Origin: Chryseobacterium gleum
GTDB lineage: Bacteria; Bacteroidota; Bacteroidia; Flavobacteriales_C; GCA-002722245
Length of the DNA stretch: 64,000 bases
Direction: 5' to 3'
Assembly: GCA_945871895.1 (NCBI GenBank)
Contig: CAMBXP010000002.1
Location: 4,308 to 68,307, forward strand
This document shows positions 34,448 to 64,000 of the stretch, one piece after another (the first letter of the stretch is position 1; each line of letters begins with the position of its first letter). Position numbers and translations under genes: made by a program. Below the pieces are notes generated by a model that did not search any database, was not told the DNA's origin, and saw only the letters and a list, made by a program, of their open reading frames with translations.

Positions 34448-34471
34448 GCAACTATTTTTCGCCGAAAATAA

Positions 34472-40185: not shown

Positions 40186-40206
40186 GGGGAAAAGAAGAGG
40201 AATACT

Positions 40207-40695: not shown

Positions 40696-40732
40696 TTTTG
40701 ATACATTGAATCCGTCAGCAGACGGACAGGCA

Positions 40733-40753
40733 TTTGAACATTAAACTTTGAAC
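40733..40753. repeat. TTGAACATTAAACTTTGAAC (TTCAATGTT family copy 3) next to the small hairpin CCGTCAGCAGACGG
   Basis: Differs at two positions from TTGAACATTAAACATTGAAC at 33022-33041. Confidence 0.5.
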
Positions 40754-40758
40754 TGATT

Positions 40759-42681: not shown

Positions 42682-42690
42682 GGAACTTTC

Positions 42691-43179
42691 ATGATAAATA
42701 GATCACTTATGCCAAGCAAGAAAATATTAGTCGATTCATTCAACACTATTTTATCATTACTCAATAGCAAATTGAGTTTTGTTTTGTTGTTTTCAGGAGT
42801 TTTGTTGTGTAATACCAGCAACGCACAATCTTCAAGCAATTCACTTAAAGTTGAATTTAAACTTGATGACGCTGTTTCAAGTGCGAACATAAGTACCATA
42901 CCAGATGTGATTTTAACAGCCAACTTTTCCGATACCACTAATGCCTCAAAACTAATTATCACTTTGGGCAGCACCTTAAATGGTACCCAACATTTTTCTT
43001 ATGCTGTAAATCTTGACGGTAGTAATTTGCCACAAGGAATTACTTTGCAAAGAGAGGGATTAAATTTAATAGTAAATACTGGTGCGCATAGCGGGGTGGT
43101 TCAATATTATGCTAGCGCTAAATTACAATATGCAAATGGGTCGTTTAGTGCCGAAGAAAAAATAAACAATGTGGAGTAG
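42691..43179 (+). CDS. Small secreted protein (paralogue B)
   Basis: 162 aa. The true start may be an internal Met. Paralogous to 42235-42681 along its whole mature region. Confidence 0.5.
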   Translation: MINRSLMPSKKILVDSFNTILSLLNSKLSFVLLFSGVLLCNTSNAQSSSNSLKVEFKLDDAVSSANISTIPDVILTANFSDTTNASKLIITLGSTLNGTQHFSYAVNLDGSNLPQGITLQREGLNLIVNTGAHSGVVQYYASAKLQYANGSFSAEEKINNVE

Positions 43180-43214: not shown

Positions 43215-46200
43215 ATGAAAAGATATTTTGAGATGAATAATACAAATATTAATAAAATAGTTGGTCATTGTGGTAAATTATTTTTGGCTTTCGCCTTTCT
43301 ACTTTTCACCTTTATTTCATACGCCCAAACCACTGTGTCTTTGCAGGCGAGTGCCGATGCACGTATCGATGCTTCAGGTTATTCAACCAATTACGCAACA
43401 GAAGCTGATGTAATTACCATGCCGTGGTCATCGTTGTACTCTCGTCGTTTTGTTATTAAATTTGATTTGTCATCTATTCCTACGGGTTCAACCATTCAGT
43501 CGGCAACACTTAAATTACGAGAAACAGGTACCTATGGTTATACAAGAACTATTAACGCCCATCGTTTAACAAGAGCATGGAATGAAAGCACCGTTACATG
43601 GAACACACCTTGGAGTGCTGGTGGTGCTGATTTTATTGCCACACCAGCAGCGAGCACAGCTATTTCATGGACAGGTACTTTGAAGCAAGATTCTTGGAAT
43701 CTTACTTCCGATGTGCAAGCAATGGTAGCAGGTACTAATACTAATAACGGATGGGTAATCAAAGATAATGTTGAAGATGCGTCTCAAAGATTTTGGAAAT
43801 TCGCAAGTAAGGAAAATGCAAACTCTTCTTTACGGCCGGTTTTAGTAATCACCTACACCAACGCGATAACAGTAAATGTAACTCCTGCATCGGCAACTAT
43901 TTGTGCTGGTGCAAATACTTCACTAACTGCTTCGGGCGCTACAACTTATTCGTGGAGTCCTTCAACTGGTTTGAGCTCAACAACAGGTGCTACGGTAACA
44001 GCTAGTCCTTCAACCACCACTACATATACTGTAACAGGCAGAGGAAGTGGAGGTGCCACTGCAACCAAAACGGTAACAGTAACTGTAAATTCCTTACCTA
44101 CAATTTCTGTTGCTCCAACTACAGCAGCATTTTGTGCTGGAAGGAATGTTCAATTGACTGCATCTGGTGCATCAACTTATTCATGGAGCCCAGCAACAGG
44201 ATTGTCAGCAACAAACATTGCAAATCCAACAGCGTCACCAGCGATCACAACAACCTATACTGTTAGCGGAACAGCTGCAAATGGATGTACAGCAACAGCC
44301 AGTAAAATTGTAACAGTGAATGCATTACCAACAGTAAGTGTTAGTCCAACTACAGCAGCATTTTGTGCTGGAGGGAATGTTCAATTGACTGCATCTGGTG
44401 CATCAACTTATTCGTGGAGCCCAGCAACAGGATTGTCAGCAACAAACATTGCAAATCCAACAGCTTCACCAGCGATCACAACAACCTATACTGTTAGCGG
44501 AACAGCTGTAAATGGATGTACAGCAAGTAAAACGGTAATCGTAACAGTTAATTCCTTACCTACAATTTCTATTGCTCCAAGCACAGCAGCATTTTGTGCT
44601 GGAGGAAATGTTCAATTGACAGCAACAGGCGCAACTACTTATTCATGGAGTCCAGTAACAGGTTTAAGTGCAACAACCGGCTCAGCTGTTTCAGCGTCCC
44701 CAGCGACGTCAACGTCCTATACAGTCAATGCTACCGATGCAAATGGATGTGCAACAACAGCAATAAAAATTGTAACAGTAAATGCGCTGCCAACAGTATC
44801 TGTCTCTCCAGCATTCGCCACAATAAATTCTGGTAACAGCACAACGCTAACTGCGTCAGGTGCTTCAACGTATTCATGGACTCCATCAACTGGTTTGTCA
44901 GCTACAAATATTGCCAATCCTTCTGCTAATCCAACTTCAACAATAACTTATATAGTAACTGGAACAAGTTCTGCAGGCTGTTTAGATACTCAAAGTGTGA
45001 AGGTTACTGTTGTTAATCCAACCTTAGAATGGGCCGAGTTAAATGGCATGAATTGGGTTTCACCAACTTTAACCAAAACTACCCCAAACGACTATACTAA
45101 CGGTAGTGCCTTCAGTAAAAACCATTTAAATGTCAATCAAGATGGTTGGGTTGAATTCACCATCAAAGGAAATTTTCACGATTATTTTGGTTTTGCCATT
45201 AAGAACTATTCTGCCTATAATAAAGACTTACGCTATGGTTTTGAGTATGCAAACGGCATAGCTGTAATGCATAAGGGTTCAAGATATACAATGGGCTCAG
45301 CAACCATTAACGATAAATTGAAAGTAGAGCGTGTTGGTGCTGCTATCAATTACTATAAAAATGGTGTTTTATTAATCAGTTTACCGGCTCCAACAAGTAA
45401 TGAAGAATTGTTTATTGATCTTTCAAATTATGCTCTCAATAGTACTCAAGAGGTAAGATCTAGCTTCACGGCAGATTTTAATATTTATGCTACGATTAAC
45501 GATAACAATCCCGCTTCTGCTTCTAGAGACGGAAGTATTTCTCTAGATCCTTTAAACGAAACCGGAACAGTAAGTTTTTTATGGAGCAACGGAGCAACTA
45601 CTTCTTCTATTAGTGGCTTAACGTCAGGAATTTACTCTGTAACGGTTACCAATGGCGCACAAACCATCAACCGCACTTATACCTTATTGAATAAACCAGT
45701 GTGGACCTCTTTAAAAAATATGAATGAAATTGGTGACGCGCGCTTAACAAAAACTACTCCAACCAATAGCAACGACGAACGAGGCAATGGAATGAGTAAA
45801 GTGTTTTTGCCAGCCAATCAAGATGGTTATATCGAATTTTTAGCTACCGATAATGGTGAATCTCAATTGTACTTTGGATTCTCTTCGGTACCAACCGATT
45901 TTTCAGGACACTATTTTTCTTATTCTGATATCGACTATTCTTTCTTTTGGTTTGGTGCTTATTGTTACATTACTGAAGGAGGAGGAGATGTGTTCAACAC
46001 GCCTACTGTTCTTCGCTCTAGCAAATTGCGCATTTCCCGTGAAGGAAGCTTTATAGTGTATTACATCGATGGCTTAGAAGTGAAGAGAACTGCAAGTAAT
46101 CCTAACAAAGATTTATTTGTGAAATTCACTCAAATGGGCCAAGCCGATCAAGGTGTTATAAGAACAAGCTTTGGTGGCAGTACCACTCCGTTCTACTCTC

Positions 46201-48645: not shown

Positions 48646-51600
48646 ATGAAAGCACTAAGAAAAAATGCGAAACTAATTAGTAGTGGATTATTACTCACTA
48701 TGGTTTTCGAAATTCTTGCACCCGTTAGTTTACTAGCTAATACCGATAGTGAAAATCAAGTTGAATATTCCAATGCATCAGGTGGCGGATCTGAAATGGT
48801 GAATATGTACAATGGAGCATTAAATTACTCATTGCCTTTAATGTCAATCCCTGGTCAAAATATTGGTTATAATCTTACTCTTTCTTATAATTCCGATGAA
48901 TCGAAAATGCTCAACACATCAAGTTTTGTAGGTTTTGGTTGGAATTTGAATTTAGGTTCTATTACGCGTCAGGTTCAAGCTGTACCCGATGATTTTAAAG
49001 GAGATCAAATATTATATCGAAATCATGTTAAGCCATACAGATCTGTAGATATTGGTTTAGGCGAATTAACTAGTACCGAGTACGGTGGAATGGTTTTAAG
49101 TCTCCCAGGAGATACTAGTTGTACGCCTAAAAGTTCATATACCGGCCATCTATACTGGGATAATTATACAGGTTTAGGTGCTCGAATTGGATATAATAAA
49201 AGTGGTGCCTTGGGCCCTTTGTCTGTGGGGTTGGAAATTGATACAAAAAGAGGTGTTGGCTATAATTTAAGTGGATCGTATGGTTTTATTAATGCAGGTA
49301 TTTCGGGGCAATTTAATCAAGGATTATCCTCGGCTTCTCTTGGCTATTCTGGAACAGGATATCAAGGTTCAACAGGTATTTTGTTTAATACGATGGTTTC
49401 CGCTCCTCAAATGCCAATGCATACTAAAATTTATTCTGGTCATGCAAAATTTGGTATGAATATGAATCCTCCTTATGAGGTAACAAATCCTGATGGAAGC
49501 AAAGAGACAAATGATTTTAAAAAATATTTTAAAACTGGAGGTTTTTACATTGAGCAGCTTCAACATAAAAATTACGGATTGCTGGGGTCGTTAAAGGTTA
49601 CTTATGTTAAAAGTACAGTTAAGCAAGAATATTATTCTACTCCAGCTTATGGTTATTTGTATAAGTCTTCTGATTTAAGTGCTAATAATGTTAAAGATTT
49701 TACCCGTTATAATTTAAGTTATACAAAAGGCACTGAATTTTTGCCAGTTAGTCAGTTGGGGAATGATATTTTTGTTCAGAATGACCAAGGTTCTGGAGGT
49801 GTTTTTACGGCTAGAACAAAGAACTTTGATGTTTGGTCTACTACAGGTGTTCAGTCTACCACAAAACAAAAAGATCTTGGAGGGGAGTTTTCTATTTCTA
49901 ATTTGTTCGCAATTCTAGAAGATCCAGCAACAATTTGCCAAGAAGCTGAGCCAGTGTTAGCAAACCCTGCTTTTCACGCTGGGGTAAATTTTTTAACTGG
50001 CGATGGAATTTCGTATGGAGGTGCTTTTACAAATTCATCCACCAATAAAAGTAATCTTAAAAATATAAGCGATGATTCGTATCGTTTACCATTGGTGAAA
50101 AATTCTGAAATATATATAGAGAGAAATAATGAAAAAGCATTAATTGGTTTTGGTGATGACGAGCCTAGAAGAATGAAGGTTGATAGAAAAGGTTCCTTCA
50201 TGTCTGGTCAACAAAAATATTATGTATTGCCTGAAAATGAGAATGAAGACAAGCAAACTTCATGGGATGTTTTTTGGAATGGCGGAAATGGATCTTATGC
50301 AACAAGCAGTTCTTTTGTTAATGCAAAGGTTGCCGATTATAAACAACACTCTTATGTGCAATATTTAACTACTTCAGAAGCTATTTCTTACGGTAGATCT
50401 AAGAGCTTTGGTTATTTAAGTAAATTGAAAAGTGATGCTACGGCGAATAGGCTTAGGGCAGGCGATGTTTTGAATTCCGATTTAAGAGGAGATCGCTCTC
50501 ATCATATCGCCGAAATTAATGTTTTTGAAACCAATGGTTTAATTTATACTTACGGTGAGCCCATTTATAATATACAAAGAAACGATGCCATGTTCTCTCT
50601 TCAGCATGAAGAAGGAGGTGACTGGGAGGGTGTTGAAGTGAATCAATTTGAGAAACCATTACCATCAGCAAACAAAATAAAAAATGGTGTAACATACGGT
50701 AAAGCTAAACCTGTTAGTTCCGGCAGCGACTTGCATGCAGGTATGGAAATGTTAAATGTTTCTATGGTGCCAGAGTATGTGGCTACCTGGCCTGCATCTA
50801 TGATAACTTCAGCCGATTATGTAGACTTAACAGGTAATGGACCTTCTAAAGATGATTTAGGTGGTTGGGTTAAATTTAATTACTCTCAGCAAGATGAAAT
50901 TCAAGATTACAGATGGAGAACTCCTTATTCTAATGTTCAAGTAACCGATGGTGTTAAAGGTCAGTCGGGTGACGACATGGGGTTTTACCGCTCAGGCATT
51001 AAAGATGTGAAATACATTACTTCTATCGAAACCAAAACTCATATTGCAGTTTTTCATTATTCAGATAGGAAAGACGGACACGAAGTGGCGAGCGAGTTAG
51101 ATGGAGGCAGAGGTAGCAGATCTCTTAAGAAATTAGATTACATAGAGTTGTTTCTAAAAAGGCTTGATTTAACTGATGGCTCAACTACTTTGGTGCAAAA
51201 AGTAAACTTTGAATATGATTATTCTGTTTGCCCCAATGTGCCCGATAATAATGGTGCAACTTATCAAGTCGATATCAATGTTGATGGTGTTTTAGAAGAT
51301 GGAAATCAAAATGCAGGTAAGCTTACATTGCGAAAAGTCTATACTACATTTTATGATTCAAATAAAGGGGAAAACTACAAATACGAATTTAACTATGGAA
51401 TCAATACAACAGATACTGATCCTTTGCTTCATACTCAAGACACCCTTTTTAACCCTTCTTACAATAGAGGTAATTTAGATCGTTGGGGTAATTTCAAAAA
51501 GAATTTCGATGAAAATGGAAACCCTGTAAATGCAAATTATCCTTTTCAAGATTTTTCTTATACCGAAGAAGCAGATTCTAAAAATGCTAATTTAATAGGG

Positions 51601-54600
51601 ATGCCAGCTCCTTGGTGTTTGCGTGAAGTATTGTTGCCAACAGGAGCGTCAATGGAATTCGAATATGAAAACCGAGATTATGCTTATGTTGAAGATAAGC
51701 CTGCTACAAAGATGTACGATATAGTGAGTGTAGATAATTTGAAAGGAATAAAAAAAGCTGTTGAAAGTGGTATTGATTTAGGATTTGGTTTTGCACCTGC
51801 TCCAGCACTAACATCTTCAGCGAGCAGACATGTTACTAAAAAAAGCAATAAAGATTTAACCAATTCTTATGATGAAGATGGTTTAACAAGTATAGGTACA
51901 AGTAAAAATCATGTGGCCATTAAACTTCCTTTTCAAGAGTTCAATAATTTATATGATGACGATGCTCGACGCGACTACTTTTACAAAAATTATATTCAAG
52001 GCATAGAAAAAGAACTTTACATTAAGGCTTATGTCTTTTTAGAAGATGAGATTCATCATGCTTTAACCAGCGAGCAAGAAAAGAACTACGATTTTGTTGA
52101 GTTAATGTCAAAAATAGATGATGACACCTTGGGTGATATCCCTTACGGTGTATATCAATTTGGCAATGAATATTATGGTTTGATAGATCTAGACCCTGTA
52201 TTTCCGCAGGTAGACCCTGTAAACATTGCTAAAATGGTAGCCACTGGCAAGATTTTGTCAGCAGCGGTATGTACTGATCCTATTGGTGCTATTAAAGCTG
52301 CCGCTATCGAGCATATTAAAACCAAACGTCCAGAGTTGTATTATGGAACGCTGGGCGATAAAGCCTCTATTAATCCAATTCATGCTTTAAACTTAATTAA
52401 TACTGCAATTACTGGTATGACTTGTACTTTGTTAAGTCAAGGTTACGCAAATTATATTCGTTTCAATGGTTGGTCGAAAATTCGTTTGAAAGATCCTAGA
52501 CATATTCAAGCGGGAACGAATGTTGAAGTAAATAAAATTGGTGGTGGTTATAGAATAAAAACTGTTACTCTTAACGACAATTGGAAAGAAGATGCTCCAG
52601 AAAAACCATACTCATACAAACAAAGCTATGAATATACCATGTATGAGGGAGAAGGCACAGAAAAGCATCTTATTAGCAGTGGTGTTGCTATCGAGCCATT
52701 AACGGCGCGTGAAGAAAATGCCGATTATAAACTGTATTACTATCAAGAAAAAATTCCCTTGGCTGAAAACAATACGAGATATATTGCGGGTCATCCTCTA
52801 GACATGTACAACACAGGTGTTTCTGTGGGGTACAGAAAAGTAACAGTAAGAAATCAATATCCCGCAGGACTGGAAAGTCAAATTAAAAAATCTATTGCTC
52901 CGCATACTGTTTACGAATTCTTTACGCCAAAAGAATTTCCTATTATAAAGAAGTCAACTCAAACTACAGCACAAAATAATCCAATGAAATACATGCACAG
53001 TATTGCAGGAGTTGAGAGCACTAATATTATCGATAATATGGTGAGCCAGGGTTACACAGTTGTGAAAAATGATATGGCAGGTAAACTGAAATCGATTACA
53101 CAATTAACACGTGAAGGAGATAATGTTATTTCTAGCCAAACTTATAAGTATTTCAGCAATAATAAAACGGTAAATGAATGGAGTTATAGTCCCAATTTTA
53201 AATCTATGGAATTAGGTGGGGCAAAAGTTGTTGATCATCTTAAAAATGATGGAATCAATTCGTTGAATTCGGGAGTTGCAGATACAGCCGATAAAATGAA
53301 AATGGAAGAAATAAGAATTGGTGAAGATTATGATGTGTGGTTAGATGTAAATGAGAATAGTGAAAATATGGATGAAACAGGTTGGGTGCAATTCAATGCT
53401 GGTTTAACATCTGTACCTGCCTTGCTGTATATTATGCCAATATTTTTTATGCCTCACAATACTTCATCTTCTAGTGATAAACAGGTTGTTTTAAATAAAG
53501 TAATTAGCAGAAGAGGAATTCTGCAGCAGGTAATTACCCAGAAAGATCAGTCAGAAATTCGCACTGAATATTTGGCGTACGATCAAGAAACAGCTGCGCC
53601 ATTGCTTACGCGTGTCGACAATGAATGGCATTCAACCAATGCCCAAAAAGAGCAAAGCGCGATTACTGCAAAAGAACCTATGATTTATAAATTCACCCGT
53701 CCAGCATATTGGGAGTATAATTATAACCCAATAAATGGAGAGAGCGTTGTAGAAACACCTTTTTTAGGTGCTTACAAAACAATAGATAAATCATTTGCCA
53801 ATTTATCTATTGTTGGAGGTAATATACAGTTGGCGCCAAATACATTAACAGATGGAGATAAGGTAACGTATAAAAAAGGGAGTGTGGTGTACATAGGCTA
53901 TATTCTTCGCGATGAAGTAAGTAAGCAGTATAAATTATATAATGCCGATTTTTCTGCTATTGAAGCCAGTGACGTCAGCGAATTTAGAGTAATCCAATCA
54001 GGTAACACAAATTTAGTAAACACAACAGTAGGTGAATTGGTTTTTAAAGACACTAATTTAAGTGCTAGTAAAGTTCTGCTTCCTGTTAGCTATCTGAATG
54101 CTTCAGCAATTACCTTTGGTGGCAAGTGGGACAGGGAATGCTGCGACACTTATTTAGGTCAATTTAGCAACAATACTTTTATCAATGGTTCTCGCAATAA
54201 ATGGATGCCTTACCAATCTTTTGTTTTTCATAACAACAGAGATTATTCTGCTTCTTCATTTTCTCAAAGAGGGTTAATTTCAAATTTCACCAGCTTCAAT
54301 TGGCAAACATCTAGAAGCAACAACTGGGTTCTGTCTAGTACGGCAGTGAAATACGATTTGTGGAATAATCTTATCCAGCAAAAAGATGCTCTAGGTTTAT
54401 CATCGTCATCAATTTATGGTTATGGTAAAATGGCTGTAACAGGTGTTGCTTCTAATGCCACAAGAAAGGAGTTTGGTTTAGAGAATTTCGAAGAAAAAGG
54501 GTATATGCATTGTAATGATAATGGGAATTTAGGCATTTCTACTAATTTGCCTTTTATGGATCTTCTCAATATAAAAGGAACTATTACCAATGAAAAATCA

Positions 54601-54690
54601 CATACAGGTAAATATTCTTTAAAAGTTAATAGAGACCAAAAAATCGTGATATCCAATAAAATTGCTTGTGAATCGAATACAACGCATTAA
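48646..54690 (+). CDS. SpvB-domain (TcB/TcaC N-terminal-like) giant protein
   Basis: 2014 aa. Hydrophobic N-terminal segment, then the SpvB signature (NGALNYSLPLMSIPGQNIGYNLTLSYNSDE...FVGFGWNLNLGSITRQ), which matches the conserved pattern in Tc-toxin B subunits and Salmonella SpvB N-termini. Long beta-rich remainder with scattered YD-like motifs. Confidence 0.7.
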   Translation: MKALRKNAKLISSGLLLTMVFEILAPVSLLANTDSENQVEYSNASGGGSEMVNMYNGALNYSLPLMSIPGQNIGYNLTLSYNSDESKMLNTSSFVGFGWNLNLGSITRQVQAVPDDFKGDQILYRNHVKPYRSVDIGLGELTSTEYGGMVLSLPGDTSCTPKSSYTGHLYWDNYTGLGARIGYNKSGALGPLSVGLEIDTKRGVGYNLSGSYGFINAGISGQFNQGLSSASLGYSGTGYQGSTGILFNTMVSAPQMPMHTKIYSGHAKFGMNMNPPYEVTNPDGSKETNDFKKYFKTGGFYIEQLQHKNYGLLGSLKVTYVKSTVKQEYYSTPAYGYLYKSSDLSANNVKDFTRYNLSYTKGTEFLPVSQLGNDIFVQNDQGSGGVFTARTKNFDVWSTTGVQSTTKQKDLGGEFSISNLFAILEDPATICQEAEPVLANPAFHAGVNFLTGDGISYGGAFTNSSTNKSNLKNISDDSYRLPLVKNSEIYIERNNEKALIGFGDDEPRRMKVDRKGSFMSGQQKYYVLPENENEDKQTSWDVFWNGGNGSYATSSSFVNAKVADYKQHSYVQYLTTSEAISYGRSKSFGYLSKLKSDATANRLRAGDVLNSDLRGDRSHHIAEINVFETNGLIYTYGEPIYNIQRNDAMFSLQHEEGGDWEGVEVNQFEKPLPSANKIKNGVTYGKAKPVSSGSDLHAGMEMLNVSMVPEYVATWPASMITSADYVDLTGNGPSKDDLGGWVKFNYSQQDEIQDYRWRTPYSNVQVTDGVKGQSGDDMGFYRSGIKDVKYITSIETKTHIAVFHYSDRKDGHEVASELDGGRGSRSLKKLDYIELFLKRLDLTDGSTTLVQKVNFEYDYSVCPNVPDNNGATYQVDINVDGVLEDGNQNAGKLTLRKVYTTFYDSNKGENYKYEFNYGINTTDTDPLLHTQDTLFNPSYNRGNLDRWGNFKKNFDENGNPVNANYPFQDFSYTEEADSKNANLIGMPAPWCLREVLLPTGASMEFEYENRDYAYVEDKPATKMYDIVSVDNLKGIKKAVESGIDLGFGFAPAPALTSSASRHVTKKSNKDLTNSYDEDGLTSIGTSKNHVAIKLPFQEFNNLYDDDARRDYFYKNYIQGIEKELYIKAYVFLEDEIHHALTSEQEKNYDFVELMSKIDDDTLGDIPYGVYQFGNEYYGLIDLDPVFPQVDPVNIAKMVATGKILSAAVCTDPIGAIKAAAIEHIKTKRPELYYGTLGDKASINPIHALNLINTAITGMTCTLLSQGYANYIRFNGWSKIRLKDPRHIQAGTNVEVNKIGGGYRIKTVTLNDNWKEDAPEKPYSYKQSYEYTMYEGEGTEKHLISSGVAIEPLTAREENADYKLYYYQEKIPLAENNTRYIAGHPLDMYNTGVSVGYRKVTVRNQYPAGLESQIKKSIAPHTVYEFFTPKEFPIIKKSTQTTAQNNPMKYMHSIAGVESTNIIDNMVSQGYTVVKNDMAGKLKSITQLTREGDNVISSQTYKYFSNNKTVNEWSYSPNFKSMELGGAKVVDHLKNDGINSLNSGVADTADKMKMEEIRIGEDYDVWLDVNENSENMDETGWVQFNAGLTSVPALLYIMPIFFMPHNTSSSSDKQVVLNKVISRRGILQQVITQKDQSEIRTEYLAYDQETAAPLLTRVDNEWHSTNAQKEQSAITAKEPMIYKFTRPAYWEYNYNPINGESVVETPFLGAYKTIDKSFANLSIVGGNIQLAPNTLTDGDKVTYKKGSVVYIGYILRDEVSKQYKLYNADFSAIEASDVSEFRVIQSGNTNLVNTTVGELVFKDTNLSASKVLLPVSYLNASAITFGGKWDRECCDTYLGQFSNNTFINGSRNKWMPYQSFVFHNNRDYSASSFSQRGLISNFTSFNWQTSRSNNWVLSSTAVKYDLWNNLIQQKDALGLSSSSIYGYGKMAVTGVASNATRKEFGLENFEEKGYMHCNDNGNLGISTNLPFMDLLNIKGTITNEKSHTGKYSLKVNRDQKIVISNKIACESNTTH

Positions 54691-54701
54691 AAAATAATTT
54701 T

Positions 54702-55151
54702 ATGAAGTATATATTTTATTTATTCCTAGGATTTCCTCTTTTTACTTTTGCACAAATAAAAGTAAAAAGTAGCAGCAGTTGTGTAAGCCCTCATCGTGCC
54801 GATTTAAGTGGTACATGCGTGAAATATTATATCACAACCTTTGCAGATTCTAACTATGTTGCAAACGGAGATTCAATAATTTTTAAGGTTACAACTACTA
54901 CAAATGAAGTGTACTTGAAAAAATTATTGTTTCATATAAATCCTGAAACTGGTTCAGGTAAATTCATTCCAGTTTTTTCAGAAACAAAAGATTGTAATGT
55001 GGTTTTTTTGAACAAAAAGAATGGAGATTTTGAGGTTTCTTGTTTTAGTCCAATTCCCCAAAATTATTGTTCACTGAATTTGATTTTTATTTCAAAATCT
55101 TTAAATCAAGTTTTCTCAGCTCCTTCAATACAATTAAAAGGATGTCAGTAA
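54702..55151 (+). CDS. Small secreted hypothetical protein
   Basis: 149 aa. Signal peptide (FPLFTFAQ). Several Cys residues. No recognisable domain. Confidence 0.4.
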   Translation: MKYIFYLFLGFPLFTFAQIKVKSSSSCVSPHRADLSGTCVKYYITTFADSNYVANGDSIIFKVTTTTNEVYLKKLLFHINPETGSGKFIPVFSETKDCNVVFLNKKNGDFEVSCFSPIPQNYCSLNLIFISKSLNQVFSAPSIQLKGCQ

Positions 55152-55195
55152 TTAAATAAATGAAAAAATAATTAGTAGCTCAATAATATATTTCG

Positions 55196-56938
55196 ATGAA
55201 AACTATAAAAGATATTTTGATTCTTTTTTTATGCATTTTTTGTGCATTTGAATTAAACGCTCAGGAGCCAATTGCTCCACCACAACAATTTAGTTGTGCT
55301 TTAATTGGTGAAGAGCTGAATGGTTGGCATTTTAGCGGTGGGTCTTTTAGAGCTTGCAATGGCGGATCAACACCAGAGACTAGTTGTAATACGTGTTTAG
55401 GTACAGGAGTTCTTGCTGAATGCTGCAGGGGTATTACTTGTTTAGATAATAATATTGTAGGTAGTCAGGGGCAAAGTTCAACCGTTTTCAGAAATGTTGA
55501 AGGAATGTCATTATTACCAGACCCTCACTATGGTAAGGATCGATTGTTTCAATATATACAGAATCAAAATGCACTTGATCCAAATCATCCATGTATAAGT
55601 CAAGTTAAGCCGGGTTCTAACGCTTCAGTTCGCTTAGGGAGCTATCAACCTAGTTCCGATTTGCGGGCAGAACCTAGTAATTTAGCGCAAGTATATTTCG
55701 ACTTTATTGTTGATCCATCCAAGCCATTTTACGAATATTCATATGCATTAATTATTGGTGATAATCCCTCATTAACATACGTTGATAATGCTGGAGAAAC
55801 AGTTAATGTAATACCTCATCCACACGGTGGAAAGTCATTCTTTGAAGTTCGAGTTTACGACATTTCTAATATTAATCAGCAAAATTTGCCGCTAATTTAT
55901 GATAAGCATGTATCTAATCAAGCTGAAGAAATAATATGTGGAAGCAATTTGTATACTCCTCATTCTGAAAAAGCTGGGTTTAAGAATATAAGCACTTATC
56001 CCAATGAAAGTTGTGGTGAGGTTGATCAATTTAGTGACATTTTTGTTAAGAATTGGTCGTCAAATATTATTGATTTAAGAGCAAAGAAAAACCGTAAAAT
56101 TAGAGTAGTTTTTACAGTTACAGGTTGTGCTTATGGAGGTCATTATGCCTATGCGTACCTCGATGCTTCTTGCTTAAACAGGGTTATTAAGCCCGAAACT
56201 GTTTGTGTGGGCGATTCGGTGCAGTTAGAATTTACTGGAGTAGGAGTTGATACAAATGAGCATTTTACTTGGAATGTAGGAAATCAAGCAGTTTCACATG
56301 ACAAAAGTCCTAAGTATGTTTTTGCAAGTAGTGGTGAAAGAGATGTGAGTTTAACTGTTGTTAATGATCATCCTAATCCTTCTTGCAGGACGACGAATTT
56401 CACAGAGATTATCAATGTTATCAATTGCATTGTTTGTGATACCTGCGACATCAAATTTTCTCTCAAACCCAATCAAAAGTATGTTCTTGGCGCATGGGCT
56501 CAAGAGGGAGTAGCTCAACCTTTCAATAGTTTTGCCTTCAATGCCCCTCAAATAAAACTAATTTTTAAAGACAAGCAAGACAACATTCTATCTTCTTTTA
56601 TTTTTGGTACTTCTGGTAAAGTGGTAGATGGTTGGCAACGAATTGAAGAAGAATTTATAGTGCCTGCAGGTGCTCAAAATTTAGATATTGAATTTATCAA
56701 TACCAACTCTAGTATTCCTGTGTATTTCGATGATTTCCGTATTCATCCTTTTAATTCGAGCATGGTTACTTATGTGTATAATCAAGAAACAATGCAATTA
56801 GAGGCACAACTAGATGAGAATAATTTTTATACCCGATACATCTATGATGAGGAAGGTAATTTAGTGAAAACTACGGTAGAAACAATTGATGGAACACGAA
56901 CCGCAGCAGAGACAAGGTCTAATATTCAAAGAAAATAA
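55196..56938 (+). CDS. Secreted Cys-rich protein with PKD-like domain and a C-terminal YD repeat
   Basis: 580 aa. Signal peptide. Cys-rich N-terminal part. PKD-like segment (FTWNVGNQAVSHDKSPKYVFASSGERDVSLTVVND). The C-terminus carries a YD-repeat motif (YTRYIYDEEGNLVKTTVETIDGTRT). Confidence 0.5.
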   Translation: MKTIKDILILFLCIFCAFELNAQEPIAPPQQFSCALIGEELNGWHFSGGSFRACNGGSTPETSCNTCLGTGVLAECCRGITCLDNNIVGSQGQSSTVFRNVEGMSLLPDPHYGKDRLFQYIQNQNALDPNHPCISQVKPGSNASVRLGSYQPSSDLRAEPSNLAQVYFDFIVDPSKPFYEYSYALIIGDNPSLTYVDNAGETVNVIPHPHGGKSFFEVRVYDISNINQQNLPLIYDKHVSNQAEEIICGSNLYTPHSEKAGFKNISTYPNESCGEVDQFSDIFVKNWSSNIIDLRAKKNRKIRVVFTVTGCAYGGHYAYAYLDASCLNRVIKPETVCVGDSVQLEFTGVGVDTNEHFTWNVGNQAVSHDKSPKYVFASSGERDVSLTVVNDHPNPSCRTTNFTEIINVINCIVCDTCDIKFSLKPNQKYVLGAWAQEGVAQPFNSFAFNAPQIKLIFKDKQDNILSSFIFGTSGKVVDGWQRIEEEFIVPAGAQNLDIEFINTNSSIPVYFDDFRIHPFNSSMVTYVYNQETMQLEAQLDENNFYTRYIYDEEGNLVKTTVETIDGTRTAAETRSNIQRK

Positions 56939-56962
56939 TATAGATGTTTTGCGAATAAAATC

Positions 56963-57691
56963 ATGCAAATGAAATTGATAAATAGAACCCGGTTAGCAAA
57001 TCATAAAATGTTGCAGTCATTTTGTGTTGTTGCGTTTTTATTATTCAATGGATTGTTGTTTTCTCAAGATTTTGCTGCCGATTTTCAAGCGGTACAGAAA
57101 TTTAATCAAAATGAAATTCTTGCTTTGGAATTCACGGTTGAAAGTCATTTTAAAATGGGTGATACTGATACTCTTATTGTTTACAAAGGAAGTTCTGTAA
57201 GGTATAACGAGATGTATTATTCTAAAAATGGTAGTATAGAAATTATAGCCGATAATAATGTTATGATTACTGCCGATCATAAAAACAAAACTCTAAAATT
57301 ATATTCCCCAGCTATTTTAAAAGAGATACAAAGAAAACAAGCGATGTCTTTCAGTTTTGTGGATGAACAAAGAGATTCTGTTGTGTATTTAGGCTTGTTT
57401 GCCAACATTAAAAAGTACGAGGTCTTCACAAAAAACAATACTATAAATTCAGTTGTAGTAAAAATCGATGAACAAAACCGCTTGTGCGAATTAACTATTA
57501 ATTATTTGCCAAATCAAAGTGGTTTGCTAACCACTTCTACAAAATTCAGCAACTATAATACTCAGTTTAAAAAAAACGATTTTGTGTGGAAAACACAAGA
57601 TTTTGTGCTTCATAAAAAGAAGGAATATATTCTTACTCCTTCATTCGAAAAATATAGGCTATTTAACAACATAGAATTAGAAAAGAATTAA
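56963..57691 (+). CDS. Secreted hypothetical protein
   Basis: 242 aa. Signal peptide. No recognisable domain. Confidence 0.4.
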   Translation: MQMKLINRTRLANHKMLQSFCVVAFLLFNGLLFSQDFAADFQAVQKFNQNEILALEFTVESHFKMGDTDTLIVYKGSSVRYNEMYYSKNGSIEIIADNNVMITADHKNKTLKLYSPAILKEIQRKQAMSFSFVDEQRDSVVYLGLFANIKKYEVFTKNNTINSVVVKIDEQNRLCELTINYLPNQSGLLTTSTKFSNYNTQFKKNDFVWKTQDFVLHKKKEYILTPSFEKYRLFNNIELEKN

Positions 57692-57785
57692 AGTGCGCAG
57701 TATGAATTTTTTGAATTTACAATTTCAACAAGTCAAATGTTTAACCAACATTTTAAAATACCAGCGCAATAAAAAATCGTGTGAT

Positions 57786-60700
57786 ATGAAAAGTATTATC
57801 TCTCCTTTAAAAATTTGGCTATTTGCATTCCTTATTACTTTACCTACTTATGTTTTAAATGCGCAAGGAGATTTCTTTCGTGGTGCAAATGAATTGCAGG
57901 TGGGTTCTGTAATGGAGGTTGTTAATACTTCTAATACCCCTGTAGGAGAATATAATCCTGTAGTAATTAAACTTAAATACGATGACTTAAAAATTGAAGA
58001 ATCGGCAAGTGATTTTAAAGTTAAAATTGATTTCACTCTTAGAAAATTTAACGAGAATGGCACAGAAATCTCTACGGCCGAAAATGGCAGTTTGTATTTA
58101 CAACACATTTCTGGTAAAAAGGAAGTGGTTGATGAGCAAGTTTATGTTGGGGGTACCGCGCACAAAGCCGAGTTAACAATTACTGCTATAGCTGGAGATT
58201 ATTTTATTACCGATGATATGGTTTTGCAAATGGACATAAAGCAAAATATCACCAATACTTTTAATTCGTTACTTGCTCCCTCAGCTCTTGCTTGTGATTT
58301 TTTGAAAAAGCAAAGCGATGAAGAAATATTGTTTACATGGAATTATTTTGAGTCGGCTAATAGCTATGAATTAGAATGGGTATTTTTAAGTGATGAAGTA
58401 AGCACACCCATTACAACATTCACTAATGAATTATTTAATAAAGCGACACGTGTTGTTACTCCAAATCAACATTATAGTATTGCTGCGCCATACTCAAAAG
58501 GTGTTTTATGCTATAGAGTGCGAGCCTTAGGTGAGCAAAGTATTCCTGCTACATCACCAGCCATCTATTTCCCTATAAAAAGTGAATGGAGTACTATAGG
58601 GAATATTTCAGTTGCTACAGGGGGGAATGTAGCTGTTTTCGAAAAAGAAAAAAGCTGGAGTTATACAGCTATGTATAGTAGTAACGGACTAAAAAGTGAG
58701 CAAATATCATATGTAGATGCTACAGGTAGAGTGCGTCAACAAATTGTAAAAGACGATGCCAACGGTAATGTAATTGTAGGAGAACAAAAATACGGTTACA
58801 ATGGTGAGCCTAGTATTCAAGTTTTACCTGGTATTATTCCCGGAAAACAATTAAGTTATCGTCAGAATTTTACCAAGTACAACAATCAGCCTTTCGATAA
58901 AGAGAATTTTGCTACCGATGCTAAATTAGCTGCTCCCGACCCTTTAGATACTAATCATAATTATTTCTCATCTGCTAATCCATTTAAAACAGATGGTTTG
59001 CATAGTTATGTTGGCGATGCCGAAGGATATGGCTATGCGCAAACGCTTTTCGATGCTCAGGGCCGTGTAACAAGGGTAAGTGGCGTAGGCGTGAATCATA
59101 AAATGGGTAGCAATCACGAAGTGGAAATTTGGTACGGTAATCCCGTGCAAGATGAGTTAGATAGATTGTTTGGTAATGAGGTTGGTTATGCCGATCACTA
59201 CAGTAAGGTCATGACCAAAGATGCCAATGGTGTAGTAAGTACAAGTTACTATAATCTATCGGGCCAATTAATAGGCACTGCTTTAGCAGGTACAAAACCC
59301 GATAAATTGGAAGATTTAAGTAACGATAATTACACTGCCGAACAGCAAGTCTCGTTCAATTTAGCCGAACATAACGAATATCGTGAACAAACCAATAGCA
59401 CGGTTATCAATCACGATTTTTTAAGTAGTGTTGCTCAGCAGTACGATTTTACTTACCAAGTTACCCGAGAGTGGTATAAAAACAATTGTACAGGCTTAAC
59501 CGAATATGAGTGCAAATATATTTTAGAGGTTTACGTTACCGATAATCAAGACAATTTAATTGATCTTACTATTAATAGTGGTGGTGTTCAAACCGATTTT
59601 GCTAACGGTAAATTTACCAAACATCTATCTGGAACAGACTTTAATACTAACAATTATCAAATGAGTTTTTCTGCCAACTTTGGTATCGGCCAGTATAAAA
59701 TTTGGAAAGAATTGCGTGTTGATCCTGCTGGTTATGCAACAGCTAAAGCTAATGTTCTAGCCCAAATGCAAAGTGGTAACAGTTCTTGTGTTGAGAATTT
59801 TTCTACACTTAAACAAAAATATGAAGATAAGTATACTAGAGGTTTAAGATGTGATGGATGCGAGCAAGAGTGTGCCGAATTAGTAAATAAATATTATTCT
59901 AAATATACTCCTGCAGGTAGCACAGAAGTGCCTTTTGCAAGTGCAATAAGAAATCTTAGTACTTTCACTTTTAGTGGTGAAGTATTGAATTACGAGTTTA
60001 CCGAAGGAACAATTGTGAAACCAACTACTTGGGATCAAAACTATGCTTACTGCGTTGCCGAAAAATGTATTAAAGGAGATGTGCCAGATCCACAATTAAG
60101 CGCAGTAAATTGTGAAGGAATGAAGTTGATGTTCATGGAGGATTTGCAGCCTTACGGTCAATATTTCGACAACAGAGGTGTAAACGACTTAGATGATTTT
60201 TACAACAGTAGTTGGATGCGCGATCATATAGTTGTAGACAATAATAATGGTTTTGATGAGTTTAAATACGACGCGCCTTACGAAAAGAAATTAAAAAACA
60301 AAGGTGAGGTTGAAAGCTACGATATTGCTAAAGACAAGAATTTTGATGGAGATGGGAATGAAGAAATTGCTGATGATGAAAACGGCTATGAAACCATGCG
60401 CCGTAATTTCAAATACGGTGTTTGGGGAGGTGGCGAAATAGGTAAATTAGATCATTACGGCAACTGGTATCGTTATCACCCAGAAGTATGTGAATATATT
60501 TACTGTGATGCCACCAAAGATTATGTAAACTGGCAAGTTGGGTTTTTAGCAAAGTCATTTGCAGTTGCAGATGACGAGGTGAAATCAAAAGATAAAACTG
60601 CTAATGCTTTTGGAGGTGTTCATTTAATTGATCCTTTAAGAGAATCATCTAATAAAGATACTGTAACACAAATCATTAAGGAAAAAATAAACAAAAATGG

Positions 60701-63700
60701 TGATCGTTTTACTACAAGTAGTGATATAGATGAAACAAAAATTAATCATGCCGAGATAACTGATTTATGGGTTGAAGGTGGCATCCAGCAGCGATATGAT
60801 TCCTATTTCAACACTAATTCTGCTAATGTAACATACGGTGGGCATACAGGCACGATGTTATATGTTGCTACTCAAGTTGCCAAAGAGTTATTTAAAGTAA
60901 ATACTCCCGATAATGAGCAAATTTGGAAAATATATAAAATGTTGTATTTACAATTGCGTAATTCATTCTTAACCAACGTAAAAATTCGTTTTAAAAACCA
61001 ATATGGTGGTACTTGTAAGCAGATAATGCACCAAACAGGAGCACCTGTAATCGATCAAACGAAATTATTGTCAGGTGAAGCTTTGTATACCTACAGTGGT
61101 TCAGGCTCAAAAACTTTCGAAATTCGTATTCCCGATTTTAGTTTGTTTTCTCAAAATTCCATTCCTGCTTTAGTTGACGCACTTCCACAGCCAGCTGAGC
61201 CAAACTCGGTAGCAAATGTTATTTCAAATCCATCTAATGGTATTGTTGACAAAATGATGAATGATGGGGTGGGTTCGGCAATGCTTAATTCATGTTCTGG
61301 TCCGCACACAAACAATTGGGTTCAAGAGAGTAACTGGTATTTTGGAGATGGTTTGATGGCTAGTTTTAAAAATGGTAGAGAAGAAATGAAATTAAGTACA
61401 TATCCTTATGACCCAAATATTAAAGAAACTAGAGCCTACGAAGGAACATCTGTAGTGAGTGATAAAAATGGTAATGTATTGTTTTATACTAATGGAGTGA
61501 GATTGTGGGATGCCCTCGACAAAGAACTAACAAGTCCTGGAAATTTATTACATGCTGGGAGAGAAGAACCTTATCTGCCAACGAGTGGAACTAGCGCATT
61601 ACAAGGGGTTATGTTTGTTAAACACCCAAAAAATGATAATAAGGTATATGTATTTACAGTAGATGATAATGAAACTGATTTGGCGCATCAGCAGGGATTT
61701 AAATACCGAGTTTTAGATTTACAGTTAAACACTCTTTCTGTGGCTTATGATTTGGGTATTGCTAGAACATCAGAAAATATTGATGCTACTTTCCATAATA
61801 ATGGCACTGATGTTTGGATTACAACAAGAGAATCTGTTAAAGATCCTGCAAACGTTAGTTTAGGTCGTTCAAGGTTCTTTTCGTACTTATTAACTGCTAA
61901 TGGCTTGCAAACTACTCCGGTAATTTCAGATTTAAGTAACGAAGTTGTAGCAATGTATGAAGATAATCTAGGTAATACAGTCCCATTACTTAACAATTTT
62001 GGCAATCTAAGTAATGGTAATGGGGGGTGCATTGAACTAGAAATTGATAGAGGATGTTTAAAGTTTTCTTGGGATGGAAAGCAAGCCGTAACAACAAATC
62101 AATTGACTCAAGGGTTTCGCAATATGGTTCAGGGAATTGTTATTTACGATTTCAATAATAGCACAGGAACATTTAGCAAGCCTAAGCCTGTCGCACGAAA
62201 ATTAAATCGTTGGGGATATGGAGAACCTGTGTTTCAAGCAAATTATGATGTTGAATGGGCACCAAACAATAAAGGTTTTTATCTTTCTTCGCAAGGAAAA
62301 CTATTATATGTTCCAAGTCAATTTTCAACACAGCAAGAAATTAGTGATAGAATAGTGAGTGTTGGTGTATTGGAAGAAAGGAGTGATGTAAAAATTGGTG
62401 GCGATGGGAAATTATATGCAACAAATTGGAACAGAGATTACATTTTCGCTTTTTCAGGTGATATAAATTCACCATATGATTATCAAAAAAACAAAATGAA
62501 GCTAGTACGTTCCAAAATTAACATGCCAATCGATGCTAATGGCGTTCAAAGAACATCTGGAATGGGTTTCTCCAATCAGTTTATCCCTACTTGTAATGCT
62601 TCAGAAACTCTTTCCTCTACAAATTGTTTTTGCGATCAGTTACTGCAAATTAGAAATGAGGAATGGATGAGTCATTTTGGGGTGCCTGCCCCAGATACTA
62701 TCAATGAAAATGTTTATTTACAAGGAGACACAATCTTAGTGAATGATGCAACAGTGCGAAAATACATTTTAGAGAGATATCAAAAAATGTATCCGTATTT
62801 AAGCTCTCGCACACCTCATTACGAGAGCTACAAAGATGATTTAGAAGCAAATTATTTATCCGAACTAACCCACATTACTCCTTGGATGGCAGGATGTGCG
62901 TCGGGCAACTATTCATTTATGCAAGGCAATTATTACTTCTCGCAAGTGCCGCGACCAGCTCCAGAACTTCTAATCAAGTGCCCTCAAGTAGATTGTCACC
63001 AAGAAGCAAAAGCAAAAGCGCACAATGATGCACTTGCCGAATGGAACAGAAGTATTCATGATCATTTAGATGAATTCGAAAAAGATTATTACAAATCTTG
63101 TTTGCGTGGTACTGGTGAAATGAATGAAAACTTAACGGTAAGCTACACCAATAAAGAATACCAATATACATTATATTACTACGATTTAGCAGGTAACTTA
63201 GTAGCTACTGTTTATCCCGAAGGTGTTCGACCTATAGATGATGCAACCAAGTTGCAACAAATTAAAACATACCGCCATAAAGCTACAGGTACCCCAATTT
63301 ATTTGGCCAATCAGCATGTAATGCGACAAGTAAATTCTTTTACCTACAATACTTTAGGTGAGGTGAAAACCAGTGTAAGTGTAGACGGAGGTCCAAGTAA
63401 TTTTTATTACGATGATTTAGGCCGCCTTATGCTTAGTCAAAATGCTGAACAAATGAGTATCGATAAGAATCTAGGTCAATTTTTATATAGTTATACCACA
63501 TTCGATAAACTAGGAAGGATTAAAGAAACTGGCGAAGTATCAATTTATAGTATGCTAGAAGCCAATGATGATTTACTTAGAGGTAAAAGAAGCTTTGCAA
63601 CAGGAGGCGAAGGTTCCCTAAAAAGTTTCTATGCTTGGCTGCAATTGGGTACTAAAAAAGAAGTAACTCGGGTGCATTACGATAAACCATTGTTTAACGA

Positions 63701-64000
63701 TTACGCACACAATCAAGCATATGTGCAAGTTTTCCAAAACAATAAGGTTAACAAAGGTGATAAACACAATCGTAATAGAATTTCGGGAGTTGAGTACTTT
63801 GAAAATAGTCCATACGAAGAACTATCCGCCTCTGGTATGGCCAATTACTCAATGGCTTATTATTATGCCTACAATGAACATGGTTTAGCCCAAGTGTTTA
63901 CTCAAAATCATGCTGATTTAAAAGGAACCAAGCAACAGTTTAAAACTATAAGTTACGATTTTGATTTATTTACCGGTTTAGTTAAAAAGGTTTCTTATCA
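57786..64000 (+). CDS. RHS / YD-repeat protein (TcC- or teneurin-like), 5'-partial; continues beyond the window end
   Basis: Not in the ORF track because it has no stop inside the window. Translating by eye from the ATG at 57786 I met no in-frame stop up to 64000, which gives at least 2071 codons. Signal peptide MKSIISPLKIWLFAFLITLPTYVLNAQ. The distal part shows canonical YD repeats (YQYTLYYYDLAGNLVATVYPEG; FYYDDLGRLMLSQ; FTYNTLGEVKTS). Confidence 0.7.
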   Translation, partial: MKSIISPLKIWLFAFLITLPTYVLNAQGDFFRGANELQVGSVMEVVNTSNTPVGEYNPVVIKLKYDDLKIEESASDFKVKIDFTLRKFNENGTEISTAENGSLYLQHISGKKEVVDEQVYVGGTAHKAELTITAIAGDYFITDDMVLQMDIKQNITNTFNSLLAPSALACDFLKKQSDEEILFTWNYFESANSYELEWVFLSDEVSTPITTFTNELFNKATRVVTPNQHYSIAAPYSKGVLCYRVRALGEQSIPATSPAIYFPIKSEWSTIGNISVATGGNVAVFEKEKSWSYTAMYSSNGLKSEQISYVDATGRVRQQIVKDDANGNVIVGEQKYGYNGEPSIQVLPGIIPGKQLSYRQNFTKYNNQPFDKENFATDAKLAAPDPLDTNHNYFSSANPFKTDGLHSYVGDAEGYGYAQTLFDAQGRVTRVSGVGVNHKMGSNHEVEIWYGNPVQDELDRLFGNEVGYADHYSKVMTKDANGVVSTSYYNLSGQLIGTALAGTKPDKLEDLSNDNYTAEQQVSFNLAEHNEYREQTNSTVINHDFLSSVAQQYDFTYQVTREWYKNNCTGLTEYECKYILEVYVTDNQDNLIDLTINSGGVQTDFANGKFTKHLSGTDFNTNNYQMSFSANFGIGQYKIWKELRVDPAGYATAKANVLAQMQSGNSSCVENFSTLKQKYEDKYTRGLRCDGCEQECAELVNKYYSKYTPAGSTEVPFASAIRNLSTFTFSGEVLNYEFTEGTIVKPTTWDQNYAYCVAEKCIKGDVPDPQLSAVNCEGMKLMFMEDLQPYGQYFDNRGVNDLDDFYNSSWMRDHIVVDNNNGFDEFKYDAPYEKKLKNKGEVESYDIAKDKNFDGDGNEEIADDENGYETMRRNFKYGVWGGGEIGKLDHYGNWYRYHPEVCEYIYCDATKDYVNWQVGFLAKSFAVADDEVKSKDKTANAFGGVHLIDPLRESSNKDTVTQIIKEKINKNGDRFTTSSDIDETKINHAEITDLWVEGGIQQRYDSYFNTNSANVTYGGHTGTMLYVATQVAKELFKVNTPDNEQIWKIYKMLYLQLRNSFLTNVKIRFKNQYGGTCKQIMHQTGAPVIDQTKLLSGEALYTYSGSGSKTFEIRIPDFSLFSQNSIPALVDALPQPAEPNSVANVISNPSNGIVDKMMNDGVGSAMLNSCSGPHTNNWVQESNWYFGDGLMASFKNGREEMKLSTYPYDPNIKETRAYEGTSVVSDKNGNVLFYTNGVRLWDALDKELTSPGNLLHAGREEPYLPTSGTSALQGVMFVKHPKNDNKVYVFTVDDNETDLAHQQGFKYRVLDLQLNTLSVAYDLGIARTSENIDATFHNNGTDVWITTRESVKDPANVSLGRSRFFSYLLTANGLQTTPVISDLSNEVVAMYEDNLGNTVPLLNNFGNLSNGNGGCIELEIDRGCLKFSWDGKQAVTTNQLTQGFRNMVQGIVIYDFNNSTGTFSKPKPVARKLNRWGYGEPVFQANYDVEWAPNNKGFYLSSQGKLLYVPSQFSTQQEISDRIVSVGVLEERSDVKIGGDGKLYATNWNRDYIFAFSGDINSPYDYQKNKMKLVRSKINMPIDANGVQRTSGMGFSNQFIPTCNASETLSSTNCFCDQLLQIRNEEWMSHFGVPAPDTINENVYLQGDTILVNDATVRKYILERYQKMYPYLSSRTPHYESYKDDLEANYLSELTHITPWMAGCASGNYSFMQGNYYFSQVPRPAPELLIKCPQVDCHQEAKAKAHNDALAEWNRSIHDHLDEFEKDYYKSCLRGTGEMNENLTVSYTNKEYQYTLYYYDLAGNLVATVYPEGVRPIDDATKLQQIKTYRHKATGTPIYLANQHVMRQVNSFTYNTLGEVKTSVSVDGGPSNFYYDDLGRLMLSQNAEQMSIDKNLGQFLYSYTTFDKLGRIKETGEVSIYSMLEANDDLLRGKRSFATGGEGSLKSFYAWLQLGTKKEVTRVHYDKPLFNDYAHNQAYVQVFQNNKVNKGDKHNRNRISGVEYFENSPYEELSASGMANYSMAYYYAYNEHGLAQVFTQNHADLKGTKQQFKTISYDFDLFTGLVKKVSY

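Follow-up and report, generated by a model that had tools for sequence, protein, structure and literature searches.

RHS toxins are well understood when a type VI secretion system (T6SS) or a Tc injector delivers them. Tc subunits are not known to carry signal peptides. A further class, called "TcdB/TcaC-like export pathway", in which a signal peptide, an SpvB domain and an integrin-like propeller are fused to the N-terminus of a toxin, has been described with Bacteroidetes among its phyla (Zhang et al. 2012, PMC3482391); LolA and OmpH/Skp are not mentioned in that study. LolA3 has been characterized in Flavobacterium johnsoniae (Fjoh_0605) as a protein with a signal peptide and a cavity more polar than that of other LolA proteins; its deletion produced no phenotype in gliding or in amylase secretion by the type IX secretion system (T9SS). 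No role is assigned to the protein in that report, where Rhs proteins go unmentioned (PMC11885536). Here, we analyze a stretch of 64,000 nucleotides (nt) from Chryseobacterium gleum (contig CAMBXP010000002.1; hereafter the window), the 3' part of which encodes two giant proteins: a TcB-like protein of 2014 amino acids (aa), which we call p2014, and an RHS toxin whose gene runs past the window end. Together with the DNA that follows, they make up an RHS polymorphic-toxin locus that is complete, has a payload of the nuclease type and genes in the immunity position, and is embedded in a gene cassette found across the Bacteroidota. We propose, with a probability of roughly 0.7, that the region represents the 5' two-thirds of an operon conserved in Bacteroidota, whose role is to produce and deploy an RHS polymorphic toxin, most likely for use against competitors among bacteria, with p2014 partnering the toxin outside the cytoplasm. 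The toxin itself is of a known kind; what appears new is that a TcB-like giant and a LolA3-type protein are companions of RHS toxins in most of the related genomes that we examined, a link found in none of the papers that we searched.

Both giants are encoded on the + strand, p2014 at 48646–54690 and the RHS toxin in an open reading frame (ORF) that is open from 57786 to the window end at 64000, a span of its first 2071 codons (an alternative start, at 57702, comes from the gene caller). Three ORFs of 149, 580 and 240/242 aa lie between them, and as judged by eye and by a hydropathy scan each begins with a hydrophobic, signal-peptide-like sequence. A preliminary description of the same DNA had reported both giant ORFs and three intervening proteins with secretion-type N-termini, all of which we find. 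Over the 17,032 nt compared (locus L003), the window is identical to the 73,470-nt contig ena:ERZ27280247:k141_2331638 save for one base, 54379, and all coordinates beyond 64000 are extrapolated from L003. Correspondingly, p2014 is identical to protein P0064 of that contig except at codon 1912, where the window DNA reads C; the C in the window versus A in the contig gives Gln versus Lys at a non-conserved position. The longer contig continues the RHS gene (L003:10734–20657) to a stop at extrapolated position 67625 with no in-frame stop on the way. Counted from the caller start at 57702 the product has 3307 aa, and the ATG at 57786, which precedes a signal-like sequence, gives 3279 aa. From 42235 on, all genes share one strand with intergenic gaps of 9–94 nt, and no terminator-like sites were found between them on that strand, promoter and terminator scans performing no better than on shuffled sequence.

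The RHS protein is organized as a signal-like N-terminus, a weak DUF6443-like segment, a variable Cys-rich region of ~1250 aa, ~1140 aa of YD repeats, an RHS core and a C-terminal extension. The DUF6443-like segment (58668–58886, + strand; PF20041, 18.2 bits against a cutoff of 27.8) is the sole match in the N-terminal ~1750 aa, and DUF6443 is present in most relatives; Pfam gives no SpvB match anywhere in the protein. The canonical YD-repeat region starts at 63174 (YYYDLAGN…, + strand), fills the window to 64000 and runs on to the core at ~66462–66704. The preliminary description had spoken of canonical YD/RHS repeats, and the strings that it quoted, YYYDLAGNL and FYYDDLGRL, are indeed present near the window end, but the in-window ORF reaches only 15.8 bits with Pfam RHS_repeat, under the cutoff of 22, and 19.0 bits with NCBIfam YD_repeat_2x (cutoff 15.8) with no single stretch significant. 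A sub-piece crossing the window end passes both models (RHS_repeat, PF05593, 24.1 versus 22; YD_repeat_2x, TIGR01643, 30.6 versus 15.8). The full-length protein has no match among PDB sequences or in Pfam, and matches appear only after cutting or when a profile is used. A YD-region profile built from 17 relatives matches solved Rhs proteins in the PDB at 1e-8 to 6e-29, with SGS1 as the best match (5.8e-29) and RhsP, Tse5, RhsA, YenC2 and teneurin-like proteins among the others. In most relatives, the stretch between first YD repeat and core spans ~775–850 aa; at L003:18200–19400 (~65170–66370) the present protein has ~400 extra residues between its last YD repeats and the core, giving ~1230 aa.

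A core with a DPxGL motif, which the preliminary description had proposed to look for downstream, is present: the RHS-associated core model (TIGR03696) scores 38.6 bits against an NCBI cutoff of 32.5 at aa ~2921–3001, with the sequence …RQLDPRLGRWFSVDP…PINLNDPLGL; the core reads …YTTEFRQLDPRLGRWFSVDPVFQPWQTPYCSMDNDPINLNDPLGL. It aligns with those of SGS1 and YenC2 (residues 604–690) and with the end of TccC3. DPLGL is followed by an extension of 306 aa, the payload, for which neither Pfam nor NCBIfam returns a family. In a homologue search, however, its last ~110 aa are 60–75% identical to the C-termini of many proteins labelled GH-E or HNH/EndoVII nuclease by their sources, and the pattern ADMAH … L[ED]H/L.S.NRS.GA is found in the payload and in all eight homologues retrieved. 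The same tail is carried by RHS, PAAR-like (DUF4150, T6SS), LXG/WXG100 (type VII secretion system, T7SS) and HINT proteins of Proteobacteria, Firmicutes and Bacteroidota, and such sharing of one cassette across delivery systems is a hallmark of a polymorphic-toxin cassette. The C-termini of RHS relatives are diverse, with GH-E, AHH, Tox-HNH, MPTase and other domains. Tox-GH-E has been described as a toxin of the HNH/EndoVII fold, with SUFU-type proteins as its immunity type (PMC3482391).

A gene for a 139-aa protein with faint TPR-type matches begins 4 nt past the RHS stop and is followed by a 136-aa gene. The 139-aa protein matches none of the known immunity families; from its position, it is likely an immunity protein. 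The extending contig thus holds the payload and the immunity candidate that the preliminary description had placed beyond the window, and its polymorphic-toxin interpretation is upheld by the RHS core, the shared nuclease cassette, the small gene 4 nt downstream and the unsplit ORF. On a second contig (L009), RHS aa 2926–3307 recur without any change as an ORF of their own (382 aa), followed by the 139-aa and 136-aa genes and preceded by a tyrosine-recombinase gene (L009:24–2831; jgi 3300044546, Ga0453712_0032549). Its DNA equals that of the window contig, with zero mismatches, from the point where the core-coding sequence starts; upstream of this point, the two are unrelated. This is the classic orphan-cassette arrangement of rhs loci, and the breakpoint of identity suggests that toxin ends are swapped by recombination.

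A scan of species-representative genomes with p2014 gave at least 581 confirmed loci, nearly all from Bacteroidota by their record titles (Flavobacteriales, Chitinophagales, Cytophagales and Bacteroidales), of which the best 80 were analyzed. The conserved gene order is giant protein, variable binding module (in some loci), LolA3-family protein and RHS toxin. A homologue of the RHS N-terminal region lies downstream on the same strand in 54 of the 56 informative loci, that is, those with at least 2.5 kb of downstream DNA, and a LolA-like gene ends no more than 400 nt from the RHS ORF in 57 of 61, while protein identity across the syntenic loci is only 24–28%. Starting from the RHS side, the order was confirmed in three of three loci (Chitinophaga defluvii, Aureispira and Mucilaginibacter), each with a small protein, a giant of 2268–2415 aa, a protein of 225–268 aa and the RHS protein; the Aureispira toxin has a GH-E payload with a SUFU-type gene downstream. 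p2014 is thus tied to the RHS toxin gene by near-obligate synteny. An OmpH/Skp-like gene is present upstream of p2014 in 36 of 83 loci, usually within ~1.2 kb, and a protein of ~190 aa is encoded upstream in 50 of 83. The preliminary description had held that this gene combination is not a described architecture. We found no account of the cassette in the literature on DUF6443, on Rhs with LolA/Skp, on Rhs with T9SS or on TcB/TcC in Bacteroidetes (few subscription journals being covered), but the gene order is common in Bacteroidota and not unique to the window.

Three further observations concern the surroundings of the cassette. A complete set of genes resembling those of a type II secretion system (T2SS) or type IV pilus (T4P) directly adjoins it in about a dozen loci, for example in Olleya; at L007:1–9958 and in some ten other loci, genes for a prepilin peptidase, an ATPase, a secretin and PilMNOP-sized proteins lie next to it, and the window has the platform and pilin genes only. 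The loci of Mesonia maritima (L077) and Pelagihabitans pacificus (L079) have a full T2SS-like set upstream of the giant and, past position 15500, other giant proteins downstream, and the tails of two of the latter in Mesonia maritima resemble, by eye, T9SS type-A sorting domains. In Chitinophaga defluvii (L090:18503–25384), the RHS gene is followed by a long array of small genes, including a DNase_NucA_NucB fragment and an SMI1_KNR4-type protein, which is a typical orphan toxin/immunity array.

p2014 belongs to a very large, unnamed Bacteroidota family, for which clusters at 50% identity provide 4174 representatives at E ≤ 1e-3. Most of these are 1.8–2.5 thousand aa long; the family has no Pfam entry of its own, and its source labels are mostly "hypothetical". 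Its N-terminus is signal-like by eye and is followed by an SpvB-type motif at aa 55–120 (48808–49005, + strand). The preliminary description had called this an unmistakable SpvB signature: the strings that it quoted are present (YSLPLMSIPGQNIGYNLTLSYNS...GFGWNLNLGSITRQ, aa 61–108) and PF03534 just passes (25.2 bits, cutoff 22), but "unmistakable" overstates a match to profile positions 3–65 of 287, and only three of 23 family members have an SpvB match at E ≤ 0.01. The TcB propeller models (TcdB_toxin_midN/midC), FG-GAP and RHS_repeat match none of 23 relatives, and the propeller models do not match p2014 itself. We modelled p2014 as two halves with an alignment of 26 sequences. The N half was obtained with a predicted local distance difference test score (pLDDT) of 61 and a predicted template modelling score (pTM) of 0.62, and the C half with 71 and 0.66, respectively. 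The best fold matches of both halves are TcB subunits, the SpvB N-domain and Rhs shells, with teneurins also among the matches. The models indicate a distant structural kinship of p2014 with TcB, in its N half as well as in its C half, with no detectable propeller.

Based on these observations, we propose the following course of events. By analogy with Rhs and Tc systems of solved structure, the YD repeats would fold into a cocoon, the aspartyl protease of the core would cut after DPLGL so that the nuclease stays inside, and the downstream protein would act as the immunity protein. The toxin is predicted to be exported by Sec, and its payload to act as a DNase. Outside the cytoplasm, p2014 may physically partner the RHS protein, either capping or completing its cocoon or scaffolding its export and display, and the LolA3-family protein, in many genomes together with the Skp-like chaperone, may assist with protein handling in the periplasm. 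Two proteins that are encoded next to the giants and described below, of 580 and 1802 aa, could supply variable binding modules that dock through a conserved C-terminal module, and recombination at the core-coding sequence would swap in new toxin ends. The cassette probably serves interbacterial competition.

Several results weigh against this proposal. The signal peptides were judged by eye and hydropathy only. The p2014 models are of moderate confidence (pLDDT 61 and 71), their TM-scores to TcB are low (0.15–0.18), and p2014 has no match among PDB chains either as a single sequence or as a profile. The idea that p2014 is a cryptic RHS protein at the sequence level was dropped, hhalign of the family against the RHS-repeat profile giving a probability of 1.2%. 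With 39.8 bits, the LolA3-like protein of the window falls under the curated LolA3_fam cutoff of 83. Pfam GH-E (PF14410) does not match the payload even at E ≤ 1, the payload motif is ADMAH and not GH, and BLASTP of the payload against two PF14410 proteins annotated as GH-E was not significant. Finally, the loci of Mesonia maritima and Pelagihabitans pacificus contain the giant without LolA3 and without an RHS gene.

How closely the two giants would interact is a separate question, and the strictest version of their partnership is a split cocoon, in which p2014 as TcB and the RHS protein as TcC form one closed shell around the nuclease, assembled in the periplasm without TcA. Both p2014 halves match TcB best, rather than TcC or T6SS Rhs proteins; the distance from YD repeats to core in relatives (~775–850 aa) is nearer to the TcC chain (660–690 aa) than to the cocoon chains of T6SS Rhs proteins (1020–1085 aa); and the p2014 and RHS genes almost always co-occur. 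However, a LolA3-like gene always lies between the two genes, and, since each has a signal-like N-terminus of its own, the two proteins would need to fold together once exported. The N-terminal YD-like/DUF6443 segment of the RHS protein could itself start a shell, the YD region of this protein, ~1140 aa in the present locus, is sufficient for a cocoon alone, and p2014 has neither a propeller that we could find nor YD repeats at the sequence level. We therefore regard a shared shell as doubtful, p2014 being the partner of the toxin in our proposal whether or not it closes the cocoon. Equally tentative is an extension of the proposal to a dedicated Bacteroidota RHS pathway, in which the Sec-exported TcB-like and TcC-like RHS proteins would come together outside the cytoplasm, assisted by LolA3- and Skp-like proteins, and be displayed or released without TcA or T6SS, in some lineages through the adjacent T2SS/T4P-like machine.

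It is improbable that p2014 is instead a giant beta-structure acting as translocon or anchor in the outer membrane, with the RHS toxin exiting through it or on it and the Skp- and LolA3-like proteins as its biogenesis factors. Barrel folds do occur among its structural matches, but they cover ~100–130 residues only and are far weaker than the TcB, SpvB and Rhs matches; neither half-model was reported as a closed barrel, and both p2014 and the consensus of the fused-type family lack the terminal aromatic residue typical of barrels. Less probable still is that p2014 and the small proteins, as surface adhesins, have nothing to do with the self-sufficient RHS toxin gene beside them. The PA14, CBM_4_9 and TSP_3 add-ons of p2014 relatives are of an adhesin type and two loci have the giant without an RHS gene, yet 54 of 56 informative loci, from four orders by their record titles, preserve gene order and orientation at only 24–28% identity, which would be difficult to account for if the genes were not linked in function. 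An anti-eukaryotic Tc-type (ABC) toxin with its TcA injector elsewhere in the genome is very improbable, since the SpvB-type N-terminus and TcB-like fold of p2014 and the resemblance of the RHS core to that of TcC are set against signal-like N-termini on both large proteins, TcB propeller models without a match, a nuclease cassette shared with antibacterial T6SS and T7SS effectors and followed by an immunity-position gene, a relative that pairs a GH-E payload with a SUFU-type protein, the immunity type given for Tox-GH-E (PMC3482391), and, in line with the preliminary description, no TcA-like domain among the 38 profiled ORFs of the window or in the Pfam labels that were read for related loci, no search having been aimed at TcA.

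The proteins encoded between the giants differ in how well they are conserved. The first, a Cys-containing protein of 149 aa with a signal-like N-terminus (54702–55151, + strand), has no Pfam or NCBIfam match and no homologue among 83 related loci. The second, a secreted protein of 580 aa (55196–56938, + strand), consists of a Cys-rich N-terminal part, a PKD-like domain (PKD_4, 23.3 bits, under the cutoff of 27), a conserved C-terminal module (…DDFRIHP…YIYDEEGNLVKTTVET…) and a YD-like tail. In 40 of 80 loci the p2014 homologue ends in this module by fusion, and in 28 of 80 the module is part of a separate gene (191–2892 aa), which suggests that it is a conserved docking module on variable binding proteins. 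At 56393–56935, the module appears as a jelly-roll-like stretch ending in DDxRxxP, followed by the YD-like tail of ~50 aa, and four relatives have CBM_4_9. The third, of 240 aa (56969–57691, + strand), aligns over positions 7–232 of 232 with NCBIfam LolA3_fam (NF053579). Its positional counterparts in two Flavobacterium species, an uncultured Flavobacterium metagenome-assembled genome, Olleya and Chitinophaga rupis match LolA3_fam over its full length with 133–222 bits. By its sequence, the protein in the window is a divergent relative of LolA3 and not a scored member of LolA3_fam.

Upstream of p2014, the preliminary description had noted an 1802-aa protein with SprB repeats and a pilus-like module, and both were found. 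The 1802-aa surface-type protein (43215–48623, + strand) has CBM96/DNRLRE, Ig_7 and SprB repeats, and its gene is separated from that of p2014 downstream by 22 nt. A shorter CBM96/Ig_7 protein takes its position in L005, the closest relative. We considered it as cargo of the T9SS, and a C-terminal T9SS sorting domain was looked for and not found. It is preceded by genes for two small proteins of 148 and 162 aa with signal-like N-termini (42235–43179, + strand), which match no family and have homologues upstream of the cassette in three loci (L005, L010 and L083). The partial T2SS/T4P-like module (39769–41892, + strand) comprises two pilin-like genes, which score 24.1 bits (above the cutoff of 21.2) and 19.4 bits (below it) with N_methyl, and a GspF/PilC-type platform gene with 152.6 bits for T2SSF and scores under the equivalog cutoffs for all GspF and PilC models; neither a T2SS/T4P ATPase (T2SSE) nor a secretin was found in the window. 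Further upstream is a homologue of the periplasmic chaperone OmpH/Skp (37356–37844, + strand; PF03938, 45.2 bits against a cutoff of 32.4) with a lipobox-like LFASC.

The remainder of the window consists of housekeeping genes, and no Rfam families or tRNAs were found in it. Two regions stand out. At 27292–32524, two paralogous AAA_14/DUF4143 ATPase genes (28791–29984 and 31337–32524) alternate in an unusual manner with two Opp-type ABC transporter permease genes. At 34167–36301, ~2 kb flanked by a RecF/SMC-like ATPase gene and an AAA/Zeta-toxin-like gene contain a single ORF of at least 100 aa (118 aa, - strand) and have no Rfam or tRNA match.

The locus bears on how the many RHS toxins with a signal peptide in Bacteroidota get out of the producing cell and into their targets. 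The cassette is very common and apparently unstudied, and it suggests a role for LolA3 as well as for a TcB-like protein that has no TcA. If the dedicated pathway outlined above exists, it would provide the first function for LolA3 and would define a TcA-less, Tc-like delivery system in Bacteroidota. The synteny also yields hypotheses on LolA3 function and on a TcA-independent use of the TcB fold that are testable in tractable Flavobacterium and Chitinophaga.

Among known systems, the BC components of Tc toxins (TcdB2–TccC3 of Photorhabdus and YenB–YenC2 of Yersinia entomophaga) share with the present locus the SpvB-type N-terminus and TcB-like fold, here in p2014, and an RHS protein whose C-terminal end consists of an aspartyl-protease core followed by a variable toxic part. 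The locus differs from them in that no TcA was seen among the 38 window ORFs, again with no search aimed at it, and no propeller model matched; in that both proteins have signal-like N-termini and their genes are never adjacent, the LolA3 gene lying between them; in the ~1750 extra N-terminal residues of the RHS protein and its nuclease payload with an immunity-position gene; and in its hosts, which belong to the Bacteroidota, a phylum that is not named in the literature that we found on Tc and Rhs structures. With the RHS toxins of the T6SS (RhsA, Tse5, RhsP, Tre23-Rhs and Tse15), it has in common the YD shell, the core, a swappable toxin, a downstream gene in the immunity position and orphan cassettes, and the same nuclease cassette is found on PAAR-like T6SS proteins. 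Unlike these toxins, the present protein has a Sec-type N-terminus, is 2–3 times longer and is accompanied by its own TcB-like and LolA3 proteins, and no PAAR, VgrG or other T6SS gene is present among the 38 profiled ORFs. Mosquito SGS1 (8fjp) is the best PDB match of the RHS region, is similar in size (3364 aa) and includes a core, but SGS1 and the teneurins are eukaryotic or eukaryote-associated surface proteins, for which a nuclease payload, an immunity gene or LolA3/TcB-like partners did not appear in the search results.

The TcdB/TcaC-like export class resembles the locus in the association of an SpvB-type element with RHS toxins; here, the SpvB-like element resides on a separate protein of 2014 aa in which no propeller was found. 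As for LolA3, it is the present synteny that ties it to RHS toxins, not the F. johnsoniae study (PMC11885536), and the resemblance to that protein lies in the full-length LolA3_fam members that occupy the same operon position in relatives, the copy in the window being a divergent one.

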